Shown: positions 37,222 to 42,698, counted from the stretch's first letter. The stretch is 64,000 nucleotides of DNA from Gloeobacterales cyanobacterium (GCA_038245785.1 JBBRSB010000015.1:34941-98940); one strand, 5' to 3'. The notes: generated from the letters alone by a model not told the origin. Numbers and translations: made by a program.

Positions 37222-37779
37222 ATGACTGCAACAACCTACAAGTGGACCCTCGACCGTTACCACCAGGCTATTGAGGCAGGCATTTTCGATGACCAGCCTG
37301 TTGAACTCTTGCGAGGAGAGATTGTTGTTATGCCCCCAGAGCGAGAACCACACGCCTACTACAACACAGAGGCGGCGGATTATTTGCGAGGATTGCTGGG
37401 TGAGCGCGTCAAAATCCGGGATGCAAAGCCGATTACACTCCCTAATGATTCTGAGCCCGCACCAGATCTCGCCATCGTCAAACCTCTAGGCTCTATCTAT
37501 CTAGAACACCATCCTTATCCAGATGACATCTTTTGGGTGGTCGAGTTCTCTAAAGCCACGCTGAGTAAAGATTTGGGCAGTAAAAAAGAAATCTATGCAG
37601 AGGCAGGGATTCAAGAATACTGGGTCGTAAATCTGCAAGACTTCCAGCTAAGCGTCTTTCGTGATTTAGTAAATGGTCGCTACACCACAGAACTAACGTT
37701 AACCACAGGCACGATTACTCCGCTAGCCTTTGCTGATGTCCCCATAGAAGTTCAGCGACTTATTCCTGGTCATGAGTGA
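37222..37779 (+). CDS. Uma2 (DUF820) family endonuclease-like protein
   Basis: VELLRGEIVVM, EPAPD, AGIQEYWVVNL. Confidence 0.9.
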   Translation: MTATTYKWTLDRYHQAIEAGIFDDQPVELLRGEIVVMPPEREPHAYYNTEAADYLRGLLGERVKIRDAKPITLPNDSEPAPDLAIVKPLGSIYLEHHPYPDDIFWVVEFSKATLSKDLGSKKEIYAEAGIQEYWVVNLQDFQLSVFRDLVNGRYTTELTLTTGTITPLAFADVPIEVQRLIPGHE

Positions 37780-38075: not shown

Positions 38076-38384
38076 ATGAATGAAAACAAACTGATGCCAG
38101 TTCATCCTGGCGAAGTGCTTCTAGAAGAATTTCTAAAGCCAATGAACCTCAGCCAAAATCAAATAGCTTTGGCTATGAGAGTTCCAGCCCGACGGATTAA
38201 TGAAATTGTTCATGGCAAGCGACGAATTACGGCAGACACTGCTCTTCGCTTAGCCCATTACTTTAATATGTCGCCACGATTTTGGCTGGGATTGCAAATG
38301 GATTACGATTTAGATATGACTGAGGATGAAGTAGGGGATCGATTAAAAAAGGAAGTGGTTGTCTTAGCAAGTAAAGGAGGATAG
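38076..38384 (+). CDS. higA: HigA/VapI family antitoxin (orphan)
   Basis: PVHPGEVLLEEFL, RINEIVHGKRRITADTALRL, FWLGLQMDYDL; no higB upstream. Confidence 0.92.
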   Translation: MNENKLMPVHPGEVLLEEFLKPMNLSQNQIALAMRVPARRINEIVHGKRRITADTALRLAHYFNMSPRFWLGLQMDYDLDMTEDEVGDRLKKEVVVLASKGG

Positions 38385-38461: not shown

Positions 38462-38812
38462 CTAACTCCCTAGGCTATCTGCACTTAGAGGGACTAATTT
38501 GCCATCCGTCGTCAGCCCAAGCTGCATATTCTCATGAGATTGAATTGCTTTTCCGGTGATTGCACAGCGCTCTTCTCTTTGGGCGACGGCCGCGATGCTT
38601 ATCCGAATGTCTGAAGTCGTGATGTTTGGCCGATAGTCTTCGGAGCGCTGCTGGACATATTCCCAGAGAATATCTCGGACTAGACTTTGATACCCTTGGC
38701 CACCCGCCAATTCTTTAAGCTTCTCTTTCAATTCTCGTTCAAAGCGAATACTGGTCACTTCCATGTCGGTGGTGGAGGTCCGGGGTGCTGTTGAGGGGGA
38801 TAGGCTATGCAT
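38462..38812 (-). CDS. Ribbon-helix-helix transcriptional repressor, TrcR-like
   Basis: MEVTSIRFERELKEKLKELAG.QGYQSLVRDILW RHH pattern and C-terminal CAITG; GGAG RBS before ATG 38812; context matches TrcR of Anabaena PCC 7120 (recalled, not searched). Confidence 0.75.
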   Translation of the reverse strand: MHSLSPSTAPRTSTTDMEVTSIRFERELKEKLKELAGGQGYQSLVRDILWEYVQQRSEDYRPNITTSDIRISIAAVAQREERCAITGKAIQSHENMQLGLTTDGKLVPLSADSLGS

Positions 38813-38831
38813 AATTTTTCTCCAAGGCCAG

Positions 38832-38862
38832 TAGACATTTCTAATAATACAAGTGTAGTATT
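38832..38862 (+). promoter_or_regulatory. Sigma70-type promoter overlapped by an 18-bp operator (TrcR-box-like)
   Basis: -35 TAGACA at 38832, -10 TAGTAT at 38856; operator TAATACAAGTGTAGTATT at 38845-38862. Confidence 0.75.
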
Positions 38863-38867
38863 TAAAT

Positions 38868-39151
38868 GTCTTTATTTTTGTGGTCCTTGTAACCACATTT
38901 GCCATGCTGTTCAGCACTCCTGCCACCTTTAAGCCACGCGCCTTTAGCCGCTCCAGCGGTGTCGTTGGCATGCAGGGCGTAGGCAAGAACTCCATTTATG
39001 TCGGTGGACTGCAGAATCTGGCAGTCACAGGAAACTTGAAAATGCGAAGCGGGTGGTGCACACAGCTCAGACAGGCACCAACCTAGGCTCTAAGAAATTC
39101 CCTCCTGTTTTCTTGCTCCCGCTTCTTTCGTGCAGAAGCGGGAGCTTTTTT
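38868..39151 (+). ncRNA. Unannotated structured ncRNA, about 280 nt, upstream of rtcB
   Basis: Lies between a promoter and a strong terminator, with no credible ORF and several stems (see findings). Confidence 0.6.
39115..39151 (+). terminator. Intrinsic terminator
   Basis: GCTCCCGCTTCT-N7-AGAAGCGGGAGC followed by TTTTTT. Confidence 0.9.
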
Positions 39152-39225
39152 ATGTCTATGCCGCTGGAAATGTGGCAAGACGCCCAGCATGAAACGCTTG
39201 CCCTACGGGAATACTAGGGCCGTGA

Positions 39226-39255
39226 TTAACAGCTGTGTAATACAAATGTAGTATT
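39226..39255 (+). promoter_or_regulatory. rtcB promoter overlapped by a second 18-bp operator
   Basis: -35 TTAACA at 39226, 17-nt spacer, -10 TAGTAT at 39249; operator TAATACAAATGTAGTATT at 39238-39255 (17/18 identical to the first). Confidence 0.8.
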
Positions 39256-39279
39256 TTATAGTTAGAGGAGTAAAAGATT

Positions 39280-40461
39280 ATGGCCTACGAAAAATTAGAA
39301 ATTTCTACAGCAAAGCCCGTGCTTTCTTGGGCTGGTCATCCTCTGGGTCATGAAGAAATCCAGATGGCCAAAAATGTAGCTTCCTTACCTTTTATCTTTA
39401 AGCATGTAGCTTTGATGCCCGATGTCCATTTGGGTAAAGGGGCCTTGGTTGGCTCCGTAGTGGCAACCAAAGAAGCAATTATCCCTGCGGCGGTCGGTGT
39501 TGATATTGGTTGCGGGATGAGTGCGATTAAAACTCCGTTCATTGCTGACCAATTAGAAGGAAAGCTCAAGCAAATACGTAAGGATATTGAAGCGGCGATT
39601 CCAGTTGGATTCAATCAGAACAAAGCAGCGGATAAGTCTGTTTTGAACTGGCAGGGTTGGCAGGATTTTAAGAATATTCATTCCGGGGTACAGGACCTGG
39701 AAGGAAAAGCCTTGAAGCAGATGGGTTCTCTCGGCGGCGGCAACCACTTTATTGAGGTCTGTCTGGATACGGATAATCAAGTCTGGTTGATGCTGCACTC
39801 TGGTTCGCGAGGGATTGGCAATCAACTGGCTCAGTGTCATATCCACACGGCTCGTGGACTTGCGAAACTGGCCGAAACCCATTTGCCGGACCTAGACTTA
39901 GCCTACTTTGTGGCTGGCACTCCTGAGTTCACCGCCTACTGGCACGACTTGCAATGGGCGCAGAACTACGCTCGCTTTAATCGAGATGTGATGATGGACC
40001 GCTTTAAGCAGATTGTTGAAAAGCATCTGGCAGGCGGCAAATCGACCAAGCCCTTACTTTCTGTAAATTGCCATCACAACTATGCAGAAAAAGAGGTGCA
40101 TTTCGGAGAGGAAGTGTACGTCACCCGTAAGGGTGCAGTCCGTGCTCAAGAGGATGATTACGGCATTATTCCTGGCTCAATGGGCGCAAAGTCGTACATC
40201 GTGAAGGGCAAGGGAAATGCACACAGTTATTGCTCTTGCTCCCACGGTGCAGGCCGCACGATGTCTCGGAATAAAGCCAAGCGCAACTTTACCTTGGACG
40301 ACTTGATTCAACAAACTCAAGGCGTCGAGTGTCGTAAAGATGAAGGCGTTTTGGATGAAATTCCCGGTGCCTACAAATCGATTGAACAGGTGATGGCCTA
40401 TCAATCGGACTTGGTCGAAGTTGTAGCCACTTTGAAACAGGTGGTGTGTATTAAGGGTTAG
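39280..40461 (+). CDS. rtcB: RNA-splicing/repair ligase RtcB
   Basis: MPDVHLG, VGVDIGCG, GSLGGGNHF, HSGSRG, HHN, RKGA, PGSMG, SHGAGR, DEIPGAYK. Confidence 0.97.
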   Translation: MAYEKLEISTAKPVLSWAGHPLGHEEIQMAKNVASLPFIFKHVALMPDVHLGKGALVGSVVATKEAIIPAAVGVDIGCGMSAIKTPFIADQLEGKLKQIRKDIEAAIPVGFNQNKAADKSVLNWQGWQDFKNIHSGVQDLEGKALKQMGSLGGGNHFIEVCLDTDNQVWLMLHSGSRGIGNQLAQCHIHTARGLAKLAETHLPDLDLAYFVAGTPEFTAYWHDLQWAQNYARFNRDVMMDRFKQIVEKHLAGGKSTKPLLSVNCHHNYAEKEVHFGEEVYVTRKGAVRAQEDDYGIIPGSMGAKSYIVKGKGNAHSYCSCSHGAGRTMSRNKAKRNFTLDDLIQQTQGVECRKDEGVLDEIPGAYKSIEQVMAYQSDLVEVVATLKQVVCIKG

Positions 40462-40577
40462 TTCTAGAGTTGGCTGGATTCTGATTAAAGATCCAGCTAT
40501 CTCTACTCGACATAACAGCATCCTCATTCGTCGTTTTTACGGGAGAGCGGCTTATGTACGTTAAGGATTTGTAGTCC

Positions 40578-41324
40578 ATGGAACTCGCTAAAAACAAAAA
40601 ACCCTTAGGCATCAAGAACTATGGGCATATTCCTCACCTACCTGGATCTCGCATGGGGCCAGGAGACCATACATGCCATGAGGGACAAAAGCGGATTGCC
40701 ACCAAGCAACTACGCGACCAGCATGACTGCGTTATCGTGCAGGAAAAACTGGATGGCTCTAACGTTGGGGTAGCGCGTGTCGAGGGGATGCTCTATCCCC
40801 TGAGCAGAGCTGGTTACCTGGCAGATACGTCTCCCTATGAGCAGCACTGGCGATTTGCGCAATGGGTATACGCCCAGCAAGATCGTTTTCTAGCAGTTCT
40901 GAAAGACGGAGAACGTCTATGTGGGGAATGGCTGATGCAAGCCCATGGCACTTGCTACGAACTTCTCCACGAGCCTTTCGTTGTATTTGACCTGATGCAA
41001 GGAGATAAGCGGGCCACGCTCGATGCCCTAAGTGAACGGATTCAAAGTCAGGGATTTATTCAGCCTCGGCTTATCCATAGAGGAAGCCCTTTCAGCATTG
41101 AAGCTGCGCTTCAAGCGATTGCCCTATCTGGACATGGAGCTATCGATCCCGTGGAAGGGGCTATATGGCGTGTCGAGAGAAATGAACTGGTCAATCCAGT
41201 AAAAAGTAAGGAACGCGTCTGGAAAGTTGATTTCTTGGCAAAATATGTCAGACCGGATAAGCAGGATGGGCTTTATCTAGAAATGGTCAGTGGTGAGCCT
41301 GCTATTTGGAATTGGTTTCCATAA
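40578..41324 (+). CDS. ATP-dependent RNA ligase family protein (Rnl2-like nucleotidyltransferase domain)
   Basis: Motif I EKLDGSN, then SR, GEW, FDL, EGAI and KYV in the canonical order. Confidence 0.85.
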   Translation: MELAKNKKPLGIKNYGHIPHLPGSRMGPGDHTCHEGQKRIATKQLRDQHDCVIVQEKLDGSNVGVARVEGMLYPLSRAGYLADTSPYEQHWRFAQWVYAQQDRFLAVLKDGERLCGEWLMQAHGTCYELLHEPFVVFDLMQGDKRATLDALSERIQSQGFIQPRLIHRGSPFSIEAALQAIALSGHGAIDPVEGAIWRVERNELVNPVKSKERVWKVDFLAKYVRPDKQDGLYLEMVSGEPAIWNWFP

Positions 41325-41353: not shown

Positions 41354-41415
41354 TCCCCTTGCCAAGGGGGGCAAGGCCATTTACAGCGTTAAATTCTCTT
41401 ATGCTAGGGGTCTCT
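41354..41415 (+). repeat. About 62-bp dispersed repeat, copy 2
   Basis: TCCCCTTGCCAAGGGGGGCAAGGCCATTTACAGC...GGGGTCTCT; homologous to 34414-34476. Confidence 0.75.
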
Positions 41416-42567
41416 ACCTTACCTCTTGGAGGACAGGTTGCAAGGCTCGCTCTGTCACTAAGAATGGATAGTTTGTGTAACCTCCTGAGTCAGGACAGCC
41501 TTCAAGAACGGGTTCAAATGAGGGGTAGTACGTTGAGCTGTCTGGAGGCGTTAAGGGTGCATTTAGGAGAAAGCGCAGGGGTAAATCAGGGTTTGAGATA
41601 AACAGAGTGCCAAAGGAAACTAAATCTGCACATCCTTCTGCTAAAACCGTATTTGCTCTTTCTTTTTCATAGCCGCCGTTGACCATGAGCGTTCCTTTGT
41701 AGAGCAACCGAAAAATAGAGGTGGGAATTTTTCGACCCCCGTGTCTAAGGTCAGCTTCACTGGCTTCCATAATTTGAAGATAAGCGAGGTCAAAGCGATT
41801 CAACGCCTCGACAACGTAGCTAAATAGCTTGATTGGCTCTGAATCCGCCATGTTGTTGTAGGTATTGCTGGGACCGAGTTTAATGCCCACTCTTCCTCGC
41901 CCCCAGACCCCAACAACAGCTTCCGTGATTTCCATCAGCAAGCGGGCCCTATTCTCAATCGAACTGCCGTATTGATCCGTGCGCTGATTGGAATTGTCCT
42001 GCAGAAACTGGTCAATCAAATATCCAAAGGCACCATGAATTTCTACGCCATCAAAGCCTGCTACTTTGGCATTTTCTGCGCCTTGGCGATACTGTTCAAC
42101 AATGCTTGAGATTTCCTCAGTTTCCAATGCTCTTGGTGTAAAGTAGGGTTTCTCTCCTTCATAGGTATAGGCTTCACCAAAGCGAGGGGCAATCGCGCTC
42201 GGTGCCACAGGTAAGGCCCCATTGGGTTGAAGCGAGGGATGGGAAATCCGCCCGACATGCCAGAGTTGCATAAAAATGCGTCCGCCGGAAACATGCACCG
42301 CCTCTGTCACCTGCCGCCATTGCGCGACCTGCTCAGGAGAATGGATGCCGGTGTTCGGGGATAGCCCTGGCCTTGGGGCGAAACCTGCGTTGCTTCTGAA
42401 ATAATCAGTCCGGCTGAAGCTCTTTGCGCATAATAGATGGTGAGCAGTGGCGTAGGAATATTATCTTTCCCAGCACGGCAACGGGTGAGCGGAGCCATAA
42501 TCATACGATTTGGTAGGCTAAGAGCACCTAACTGAAAGGGTAAAAATAAATTTACGGAACTATTCAT
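41414..42567 (-). pseudogene. Old yellow enzyme/alkene reductase (NemA-like), frameshifted
   Basis: NRMIMAPLTRCRA..YYAQRASAGLIISEAT, then a 1-bp loss near 42350 puts GIHSPEQVAQWRQVTEAVH in another frame; QLWHVGR and EIHGAFGYLIDQF follow. Confidence 0.88.
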
Positions 42568-42698
42568 GTACTTAATCCTTAGAAGCAATTGAATACGTTG
42601 AGATTAAAGGCAGCTCGACTAGAGCGTCTTGCAGTTTTTTGCAAAACTTATCAAAAAATTGTGAAATCTGAGTTCAATTGTTGTTATGAGCAAGCAGC

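Follow-up and report, generated by a model that had tools for sequence, protein, structure and literature searches.

In Anabaena sp. PCC 7120, according to the part of Wang et al. 2023 (PMC10272220) available to us, TrcR (All0854) is an autoregulated ribbon–helix–helix (RHH) repressor which answers inhibitors of translation elongation; it represses rtcB and a tRNA operon, its binding was shown by electrophoretic mobility shift assay, the protein falls under chloramphenicol, and rtcB is raised 77-fold in the trcR mutant. The TrcR site, ATACTACACTTGTATTAC, overlaps the −10 element, and the footprint at trcR extends from −53 to −28. The accessible part of Santamaria-Gomez et al. 2021 (PMC8421152) describes an HNH nuclease and rtcB as recurrent neighbours of long tRNA arrays (L-arrays); these neighbours have in common direct-repeat operators that cover the −10 element and the transcription start, and chloramphenicol induces them. 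Here we analyse a 64,000-nucleotide stretch of a Gloeobacterales cyanobacterium genome (GCA_038245785.1 JBBRSB010000015.1:34941-98940; hereafter the window), of which positions 38,462 to 41,324 hold a trcR-like gene, a terminated leader unit, rtcB and a gene for a second RNA ligase. We consider it probable that this locus represents, in compact form, the TrcR regulon by which cyanobacteria respond to translational stress.

The TrcR–rtcB regulon is already known, and what the window mainly adds to it is a compact natural arrangement; the leader family, and the carriage of the ligase by tRNA arrays, seem to be new. Two other systems bear comparison. In the rsr–Y RNA–rtcBA operon of Salmonella, which has RtcR as its stress-responsive regulator, rtcB has a structured RNA as its neighbour. 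The genome studied here differs from it in having no Ro60/TROVE, RtcA, RtcR or Y RNA match and in using a repressor of a presumably different fold; the initial annotation had seen no Ro60, rtcA or rtcR at the locus, and searches with RtcA (PF01137), TROVE/Ro60 (PF05731) and RtcR (PF06956) extend this to the whole 98%-complete genome, the control genomes for PF05731 being positive. In trp-type attenuators, a promoter is followed by a translated leader, a stop codon shortly before an intrinsic terminator, and then the regulated gene.

The trcR–rtcB locus and its operators

The locus comprises the following features.

38462-38812, minus strand: trcR-like gene for a predicted RHH repressor, 116 aa from ATG 38812, the likely start
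38844-38861, no strand assigned: box 1, TrcR operator, 17/18 to the published motif, with a −10 element TAGTAT at 38856-38861
38868-39151, plus strand: leader unit, predicted transcript of ~285 nt, its start placed from the −10 element and its end at the terminator T-tract
38904-39086, plus strand: leader open reading frame (ORF), 60 codons from ATG 38904, stop TAG at 39084-39086
39046-39053, plus strand: candidate antiterminator strand GAAGCGGG, a copy of the terminator 3′ arm
39055-39079, plus strand: hairpin P1, GGTGC (39055-39059) pairing with GCACC (39075-39079)
39092-39114, plus strand: hairpin P2, AAGAAA (39092-39097) pairing with TTTCTT (39109-39114) in the centroid fold
39115-39151, plus strand: intrinsic terminator, 12-bp stem (39115-39145), 7-nt loop, then T6
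39237-39254, no strand assigned: box 2, TrcR operator at the rtcB promoter, 17/18 to the published motif, with a −10 element TAGTAT at 39249-39254
39280-40461, plus strand: rtcB, 393 aa
40578-41324, plus strand: stand-alone ATP-dependent RNA-ligase-type nucleotidyltransferase, 248 aa

A spacer of 467 nt separates the RHH gene from rtcB, and a 116-nt gap separates rtcB from the ligase gene. The divergent RHH gene, two boxes over −10 elements, terminator, rtcB and second ligase gene listed by the initial annotation are thus all present.

The two boxes lie in a 19-nt direct repeat (38845-38863 and 39238-39256; 95% identical), and the published Anabaena 18-mer ATACTACACTTGTATTAC is found with one mismatch at each of 38844-38861 and 39237-39254. 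At up to three mismatches these are its only sites in the 64 kb, where 0.00 are expected (100 shuffles). The promoter-like sequences on the plus strand over the boxes are TAGACA-18-TAGTAT (box 1) and TTAACA-17-TAGTAT (box 2); such sites number three in total, which is no excess over shuffles (3.8 ± 2.2), and it is their placement that counts. Two 18-bp boxes over −10 elements had been noted before, and the match to the published operator bears them out. Box 1, at −32 to −49 of ATG 38812, falls within the published −53 to −28 footprint, and is predicted to cover the trcR promoter on one strand and the rightward leader promoter on the other, with box 2 predicted to cover the promoter of rtcB. 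The same placement recurs elsewhere: 25/32 of the trcR homologue loci examined carry a box upstream, in the same orientation, with no more than three mismatches.

The RHH gene is assigned to the TrcR family of repressors through its relatives, operator match and spacing rather than through an alignment to All0854. Its ORF runs from 38462 to 38995 on the minus strand, the version longer than 116 aa being unlikely. Relatives number 686 at E≤1e-10 in a large protein collection, are mostly ~111-aa cyanobacterial proteins, and occur in 121/201 sampled cyanobacterial genomes; they include genera named in the Figure 2 legend of PMC10272220 as available to us, such as Coleofasciculus. No solved relative was found by sequence, and Pfam returns a weak match to the RHH-type BrnA_antitoxin family (E 0.0038; 18 bits, below the 26.1 cut-off). 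The operator on the promoters of trcR, the leader unit and rtcB supports the earlier view that the repressor is TrcR-like. Several genomes (L027, L132, L143, L155 and others) hold two to six trcR-like paralogues, some of which match as two half-length pieces, and many such paralogues have their own divergent leader copy ~300-400 nt away.

In the proposed scheme, TrcR would bind box 1, with autorepression at the back-to-back trcR and leader promoters, and box 2 at the rtcB promoter; were TrcR to fall when elongation is impaired, as in Anabaena, all three promoters would open. The likeness to the Anabaena system, as far as PMC10272220 was available, lies in a repressor of ~111-116 aa, an operator placed 30-50 nt upstream of the start codon and overlapping the −10 element, and the same operator on the rtcB promoter. 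The differences are that trcR (all0854) and rtcB (all3526) are far apart there but divergent neighbours here, and that Table 1 of that paper, in the part seen, contains no second ligase.

A strict scan of the genome with the 18-mer returns the two window boxes only. A further variant with a one-base insertion lies at C1:85327, upstream of a second leader copy on contig C1, so the genome has at least three TrcR-type operators, and a regulon of two sites only was rejected on account of it. The published degenerate motif TGTWNWWNWNNWGTANYNWA was dropped, as it found five unrelated genome sites and matched neither window box.

A leader family with a maintained reading frame

Many loci share one layout on the side divergent from trcR: the box comes first, then 300-520 nt of sequence closed by a strong terminator, with the 3′ domain in common. 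The family was detected by comparing regions divergent from trcR, and then with a covariance model. BLAST of the spacer among relatives matched only bases 2-49 (the box side) in one same-genus genome, and against 200 cyanobacteria gave only 23-26-nt matches at chance level; nor did the leader unit match any Rfam family at E up to 10, Y RNA and tRNA-like RNAs included, beyond sub-threshold terminator-like matches. The model, R1, was built on the 3′ domain of nine sequences, the window copy among them, and matches 63/151 cyanobacterial genomes at E≤1e-3. The window 3′ domain (39035-39151) scores 92.2 bits against it (E 5.7e-23), as a seed sequence of the model, and taken alone forms a more stable fold than its shuffles (z −2.22).

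Thirty-seven full-length copies, 36 of them distinct, were aligned (alignment A4). A box with up to three mismatches lies upstream in 32/37, at 305-523 nt before the terminator end in 31 and at 810 nt in one (L058), and trcR or a trcR-like paralogue is divergent within 1.5 kb in 27/37. The next co-oriented gene, in 25 copies, is HNH-like (14) or encodes an unknown protein of ~130 aa beginning MLKFTYTE (11); Pfam confirmed HNH in 4/4 of the genes tested, and found nothing in seven of the unknown proteins or in a related 134-aa ORF of genome G186. Downstream of the terminator end, a co-oriented ORF of 130-190 codons begins within 20 nt in 12/37 copies. In the window, the next gene begins 128 nt past the terminator, behind its own promoter, and is rtcB, which lies downstream of the leader in 4/37 copies.

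The structure of the 3′ domain is supported by covariation. In P1 and the terminator together, 11 pairs are changed on both sides, compared with 3.5 ± 1.3 in shuffled alignments, none of 500 of which reached as high, and slid controls were also lower than the real alignment. All four basal pairs of P1 are changed on both sides across the family, the window version (GGTGC/GCACC) being compensatory with respect to the GGTAC/GTACC of most members. The terminator helix is paired in 97.7% of cells, with changes on both sides in 5/11 pairs. P2-like arms (TAGAAAA/TTTTCTA) are present in many rows of A4, as judged by eye, and AGCGGG is nearly invariant.

In 31/31 units whose box could be recognised, the longest frame free of stops starts shortly after the box and closes just beyond P1, 22-55 nt inside the 3′ domain. 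Over 2588 codons this chosen frame contains no stop, by selection, and the other two contain 116 and 136. With one representative for each of 19 sequence clusters, shuffling gives p values of 0.008-0.20 for frame length, and a Fisher combined p of 1.7e-9. An ATG or GTG in frame lies 48-76 nt from the box in 27/31 units, against only two out of frame, and the family frames measured from the aligned start are 60-112 codons long. The start and stop of the window frame align with those of the family, and starting at GTG 38880 instead would keep it open over 68 codons. The initial annotation described a structured non-coding RNA with its own terminator; the terminator is confirmed, but the unit is not plainly non-coding, as it holds the family-conserved frame at 38904-39086.

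The encoded peptides show little sign of amino-acid constraint. They align poorly outside segments fixed by RNA motifs, the covariation of P1 alters encoded residues, and substitutions at the three codon positions of close pairs (7/13/11, 23/29/29, 24/31/31 and 38/29/43) show no third-position excess; in the pair L057/L059 change is quicker within the frame (31 differences in 246 nt) than in the flanks (4 in 107 nt). The exact leader peptides of the window and PCC 7120 are absent from a collection of 15 billion proteins, which means that no gene has been called there. An open frame without amino-acid constraint fits a leader whose translation matters, that translation itself being predicted.

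A member of the family is present on pCC7120delta of Nostoc/Anabaena sp. PCC 7120 (R1 match of 53 bits, E 8.5e-14). It was reached through the HNH protein, blastn of a Nostocales leader unit against plasmids having given no match. This leader (L104 2169-2446) consists of an unannotated 72-codon frame and the 3′ domain, lies directly before an annotated HNH gene with its terminator T-tract ending 18 nt before the HNH start codon, and is followed by 24 tRNA genes; the HNH gene matches all8564 of the published work. A literature search on gene names plus attenuation found only PMC10272220 and PMC8421152 to be relevant, of which the available text of the former makes no mention of leader, terminator, divergent or antisense, and that of the latter none of an untranslated region, leader, terminator or attenuation. 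What had been taken for a non-coding RNA thus belongs to a widespread, apparently undescribed leader with an ORF and a terminator.

The second leader copy of this genome, on contig C1 (~85327-87300; 31.7 bits), is diverged and follows the TrcR-box variant; behind it come an HNH nuclease gene, a gene for an unknown ~130-aa protein beginning MLKIVYT, and a Uma2-like gene. Proteins of ~130 aa beginning MLKFTYTETG, of no Pfam family, recur after the leader in L053, L059, L061, L065, L081, L087, L092, L097, L101, L050 and L067:5489-5893, and in three genomes the gene stands between the leader or box and rtcB. It is possible that this protein is a further, as yet unnamed, component of the TrcR regulon.

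A proposed attenuation mechanism and competing accounts of the leader

Our preferred, though tentative, reading is that the TrcR-box-driven unit is a sensor of ribosome speed, in which translation of a long unconstrained frame decides whether the terminator forms; we regard this as possible rather than probable. The order of the leader elements is box, start codon ~60 nt on, unconstrained frame of 60-112 codons, covarying hairpin, stop and intrinsic terminator. Ribosomes that reach the end of the frame would favour the terminator, whereas if ribosomes lag, the upstream GAAGCGGG would pair with the terminator 5′ arm and allow read-through, which in this genome would add to the box-2-driven expression of rtcB and the ligase. 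In the window, GAAGCGGG (39046-39053) can indeed pair with CCCGCTTC at 39118-39125 in the 5′ arm. With the 3′ arm left out, the nascent RNA is predicted to adopt this GAAGCGGG/CCCGCTTC pairing (−25.2 kcal/mol), and the full domain prefers the terminator (−39.1 kcal/mol, compared with −31.1 kcal/mol when the antiterminator pairing is forced).

The resemblance to trp-type attenuators lies in a predicted promoter, a putatively translated leader whose stop codon comes soon before the intrinsic terminator, a terminator directly before a gene in 12/37 copies and in PCC 7120, and an upstream stretch with which the 5′ arm of the terminator could pair. The leader differs in that its frame is 60-112 codons rather than about 14-30, that no conserved regulatory codons are present, and that the signal would be the overall pace of elongation and not the charging of a single tRNA, read through an alternative pairing that is putative.

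Several observations weigh against our account of the locus or reduce the force of the evidence for it. The antiterminator pairing is possible in 88.2% of cells compared with 87.5% when shuffled, with one compensatory pair, and so is not supported by covariation; the antiterminator appears in nascent folds of 36/36 members but also in 252/360 controls in which the G-rich segment was shuffled, so that the test does not discriminate. For these two reasons we hold the attenuator reading at well below an even chance. R1 and A4 were fitted to the proposed structure and hence favour it. For the window copy itself, the frame length alone is unremarkable (shuffle p 0.19), and the fold of the whole leader unit does not stand out from that of shuffled sequence (z −0.97). 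No rtcB match was found in G001 or G002, two genomes of the same genus; G001 also gave no leader match, and its trcR gene, which has kept its box, stands among unrelated toxin–antitoxin-like genes. Finally, a box and promoter of its own precede rtcB, 85 nt past the leader terminator, so the leader may be dispensable for rtcB here, where it may be a second input or a recent relic.

The alternative which survives best, though we think it unlikely, is that the unit is a stand-alone small gene, from which TrcR derepression makes a fast-evolving peptide of 60-110 aa that acts itself, the terminator just ending the gene. The maintained frame, the aligned start codon and the strong terminator are as this would predict, and in some loci the next co-oriented ORF comes only 150-370 nt later (L059 +302, L061 +373, L053 +157). 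Against it stand the 12 copies in which such an ORF begins almost at the terminator end, the even spread of substitutions over codon positions, the poor alignment of the peptides outside the part fixed by RNA motifs, and the encoded residues changed by hairpin covariation; the absence of the exact peptides from the protein collection also points this way, although it shows only that no gene was called.

We give markedly less credence to the view that the unit yields a structured, non-coding RNA acting together with the ligases, whether as a Y-RNA-like scaffold, a mimic of repair substrates or a trans-acting small RNA with an exposed GGGAGG. The hairpins of the conserved 3′ domain, of which there are two or three, and its AGCGGGAGG, single-stranded and almost without variation, would suit such an RNA, as would the terminated product of ~285 nt that is expected; the frame-specific lack of stops and the in-frame start codon are, however, hard to explain by it. 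Neither an Rfam match nor a Ro60 gene was found in the searches described above, and the element is absent from the flanks of all 32 ligase loci that we compared and upstream of rtcB in the four copies only. The RNA as a repair cofactor tied to the ligases, as first envisaged, is accordingly not sustained: of the single stress-inducible repair system that the initial annotation made of regulator, RNA and two ligases, the repressor with its operators is supported and the rtcB–ligase unit is plausible, but the RNA part is not supported.

Slightly less probable again is that the leader is a relic here, left when an ancestral trcR–leader–HNH cassette lost its HNH gene on insertion of rtcB–ligase with its own box, so that it only ends a useless divergent transcript. 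In keeping with this, rtcB has a separate operator and promoter, contig C1 carries a complete box–leader–HNH–unknown-protein cassette, the boxed G001 trcR has neither leader nor rtcB beside it, and in no other of the 37 copies does a second box come directly after the leader. Against it, the box, in-frame ATG at +60, open frame, compensated P1, perfect 12-bp terminator and 92-bit score are all intact; prolonged neutral decay would not be expected to leave them so, but a rearrangement of recent date would give the same picture.

The two ligases and gene order across genomes

RtcB is a full-length family match to PF01139 (2-426 of 426, E 9e-128), is 73-83% identical to full-length RtcB matches in other cyanobacteria, and contains a visible SHGAGR segment, presumably the nucleophile motif. 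In NCBIfam its nearest entry is the intein-bearing RtcB subfamily, below cut-off, and no intein model reaches the cut-off. No terminator or promoter-like site is predicted in the spacer between rtcB and the ligase gene, so a single stress-inducible unit is plausible, and the two are probably carried on one transcript.

The second ligase (PF09414, E 2e-19) is the only PF09414 gene in the genome. Its motif I is EKLDG, with K57 invariant in 19/19 relatives, and an N-terminal conserved segment of 45 residues (KPLGxKxYGxIxHLPxSRxG) is modelled at low confidence. By sequence, no solved relative was found at E up to 1. The AlphaFold model has a predicted local distance difference test (pLDDT) score of 67, and its last 27 residues (222-248) fall below pLDDT 50 and form no folded domain. 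In Foldseek, this model matched, in order, fungal Trl1 (6n0t, E 2e-6), archaeal Rnl3, NgrRnl (Rnl5) and T4 Rnl1, with T4 Rnl2 (2hvr) ranked 34th (E 7e-4). Rnl2 ligases have a specific C-terminal domain. The window protein has in common with the Rnl1-Rnl5 and Trl1 ligases a covalent nucleotidyltransferase core with motif I KxDG, but at only 248 aa has no recognised C-terminal or OB accessory domain. It is an ATP-type RNA-ligase nucleotidyltransferase and not specifically an Rnl2; the earlier label of Rnl2-type ligase holds for the nucleotidyltransferase with its motif I lysine, and not for the subfamily, given the missing Rnl2 C-terminal domain and the low fold rank. From the chemistry of the families, RtcB would seal breaks with 2′,3′-cyclic-phosphate and 5′-OH ends and the ATP-type ligase those with 3′-OH and 5′-phosphate ends, so that the pair could mend tRNA or rRNA cut in either way.

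Gene order was compared in the cyanobacterial sample and in 32 loci of ligase relatives from named genomes, for which flanks were fetched. RtcB occurs in 76/201 cyanobacterial genomes, 71 of which also hold TrcR, and the two genes are adjacent in two of these 71, namely the genome of the window and G186, in which an unknown 134-aa gene lies between them and there is only one box. The ligase family is rare in cyanobacteria (10/201 genomes), and in none of the other nine genomes with a relative does the ligase lie by rtcB or on the rtcB contig. Among the 32 ligase loci, RtcB is within 5 kb in one (L014, a Blastocatellia metagenome-assembled genome), and TrcR is found in the flanks of none. The initial annotation had counted a synteny unique to this genome against its reading, and that is what the comparison shows: the synteny is not conserved, and the exact order trcR–leader–rtcB–ligase was found in no other genome searched. 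The arrangement was not one that the initial annotation recognised as described; TrcR control of rtcB, however, is published (PMC10272220, PMC8421152). A functional link of repressor, rtcB and ligase would remain through shared regulation and a shared mobile context.

Mobile context is provided by tRNA arrays. Between 7 and 26 tRNA genes surround the ligase in 11/32 loci, the other 21 having none; the 11 are all eight of the closest relatives (Calothrix, Dulcicalothrix and Scytonematopsis; 70-72% identity) and 3/5 of those in Acidobacteria. The ligase neighbours in these arrays include a microbial PARG-type gene, which we take to be the TIGR02452 family, an EF-Tu paralogue, and GNAT, HNH and DUF6847 genes. 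In L005, L009 and L011 (Calothrix and Scytonematopsis arrays) the PARG-type gene flanks the ligase and the EF-Tu paralogue follows, with GNAT also present in L005; one Anaerolineales locus has the order Fic–RlaP–ligase. A TIGR02452-family gene is among those raised in the Anabaena trcR mutant in the available part of PMC10272220. Across the sample of 200 genomes, the ligase has a single close relative in cyanobacteria, at 61% identity (G133, C119:1311-1941), which is interrupted by two stop codons and is probably a pseudogene.

Compared with the L-arrays of PMC8421152, as far as that source was available, the window is alike in that its ligase family lies in or beside such arrays in those 11 loci; it differs in that ARAGORN finds no tRNA gene in the window, and the ligase is not named in the part of that paper seen. 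No run of at least three is formed by the 56 tRNA genes of the genome, so that no L-array is recognised in it, although such arrays may be missed in assembly. The module resembles cargo of a long tRNA array, reassembled beside trcR minus the tRNAs.

To the left of trcR, the window contains a gene for a Uma2-family endonuclease (37222-37779, plus strand) and one for a HigA-type antitoxin (38076-38384, plus strand) with no obvious HigB partner. Neither is seen at trcR in the same-genus G001, and trcR therefore appears to be flanked by insertions on both sides here. To the right, at 41414-42588 on the minus strand, a gene resembling flavin oxidoreductases by eye is divided between ORFs 41414-42310 and 42307-42588, which overlap and are read in different frames; this suggests a frameshift or an assembly error.

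Judged by its distribution, the small ATP-type RNA ligase family seems to be carried regularly by the long tRNA arrays of cyanobacteria and Acidobacteria, which suggests that the arrays travel with both ligation chemistries for mending cut tRNAs. The leader is conserved and central to the way in which cyanobacteria respond to translational stress, and carries no annotation in the sources that were consulted; its presence in the genetically tractable Anabaena PCC 7120 makes a translation-sensing attenuator directly testable there. Should the leader be a sensor of ribosome speed, it would give the TrcR regulon a second, direct input from elongation stress, gating an HNH nuclease, rtcB and, here, a ligase of the tRNA-array type. 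It would then bear on how translational stress is sensed, a question left open in the available part of PMC10272220, and the sensor would be one kept in ~40% of sampled cyanobacterial genomes, standing in PCC 7120 before all8564 beside a reserve tRNA operon.

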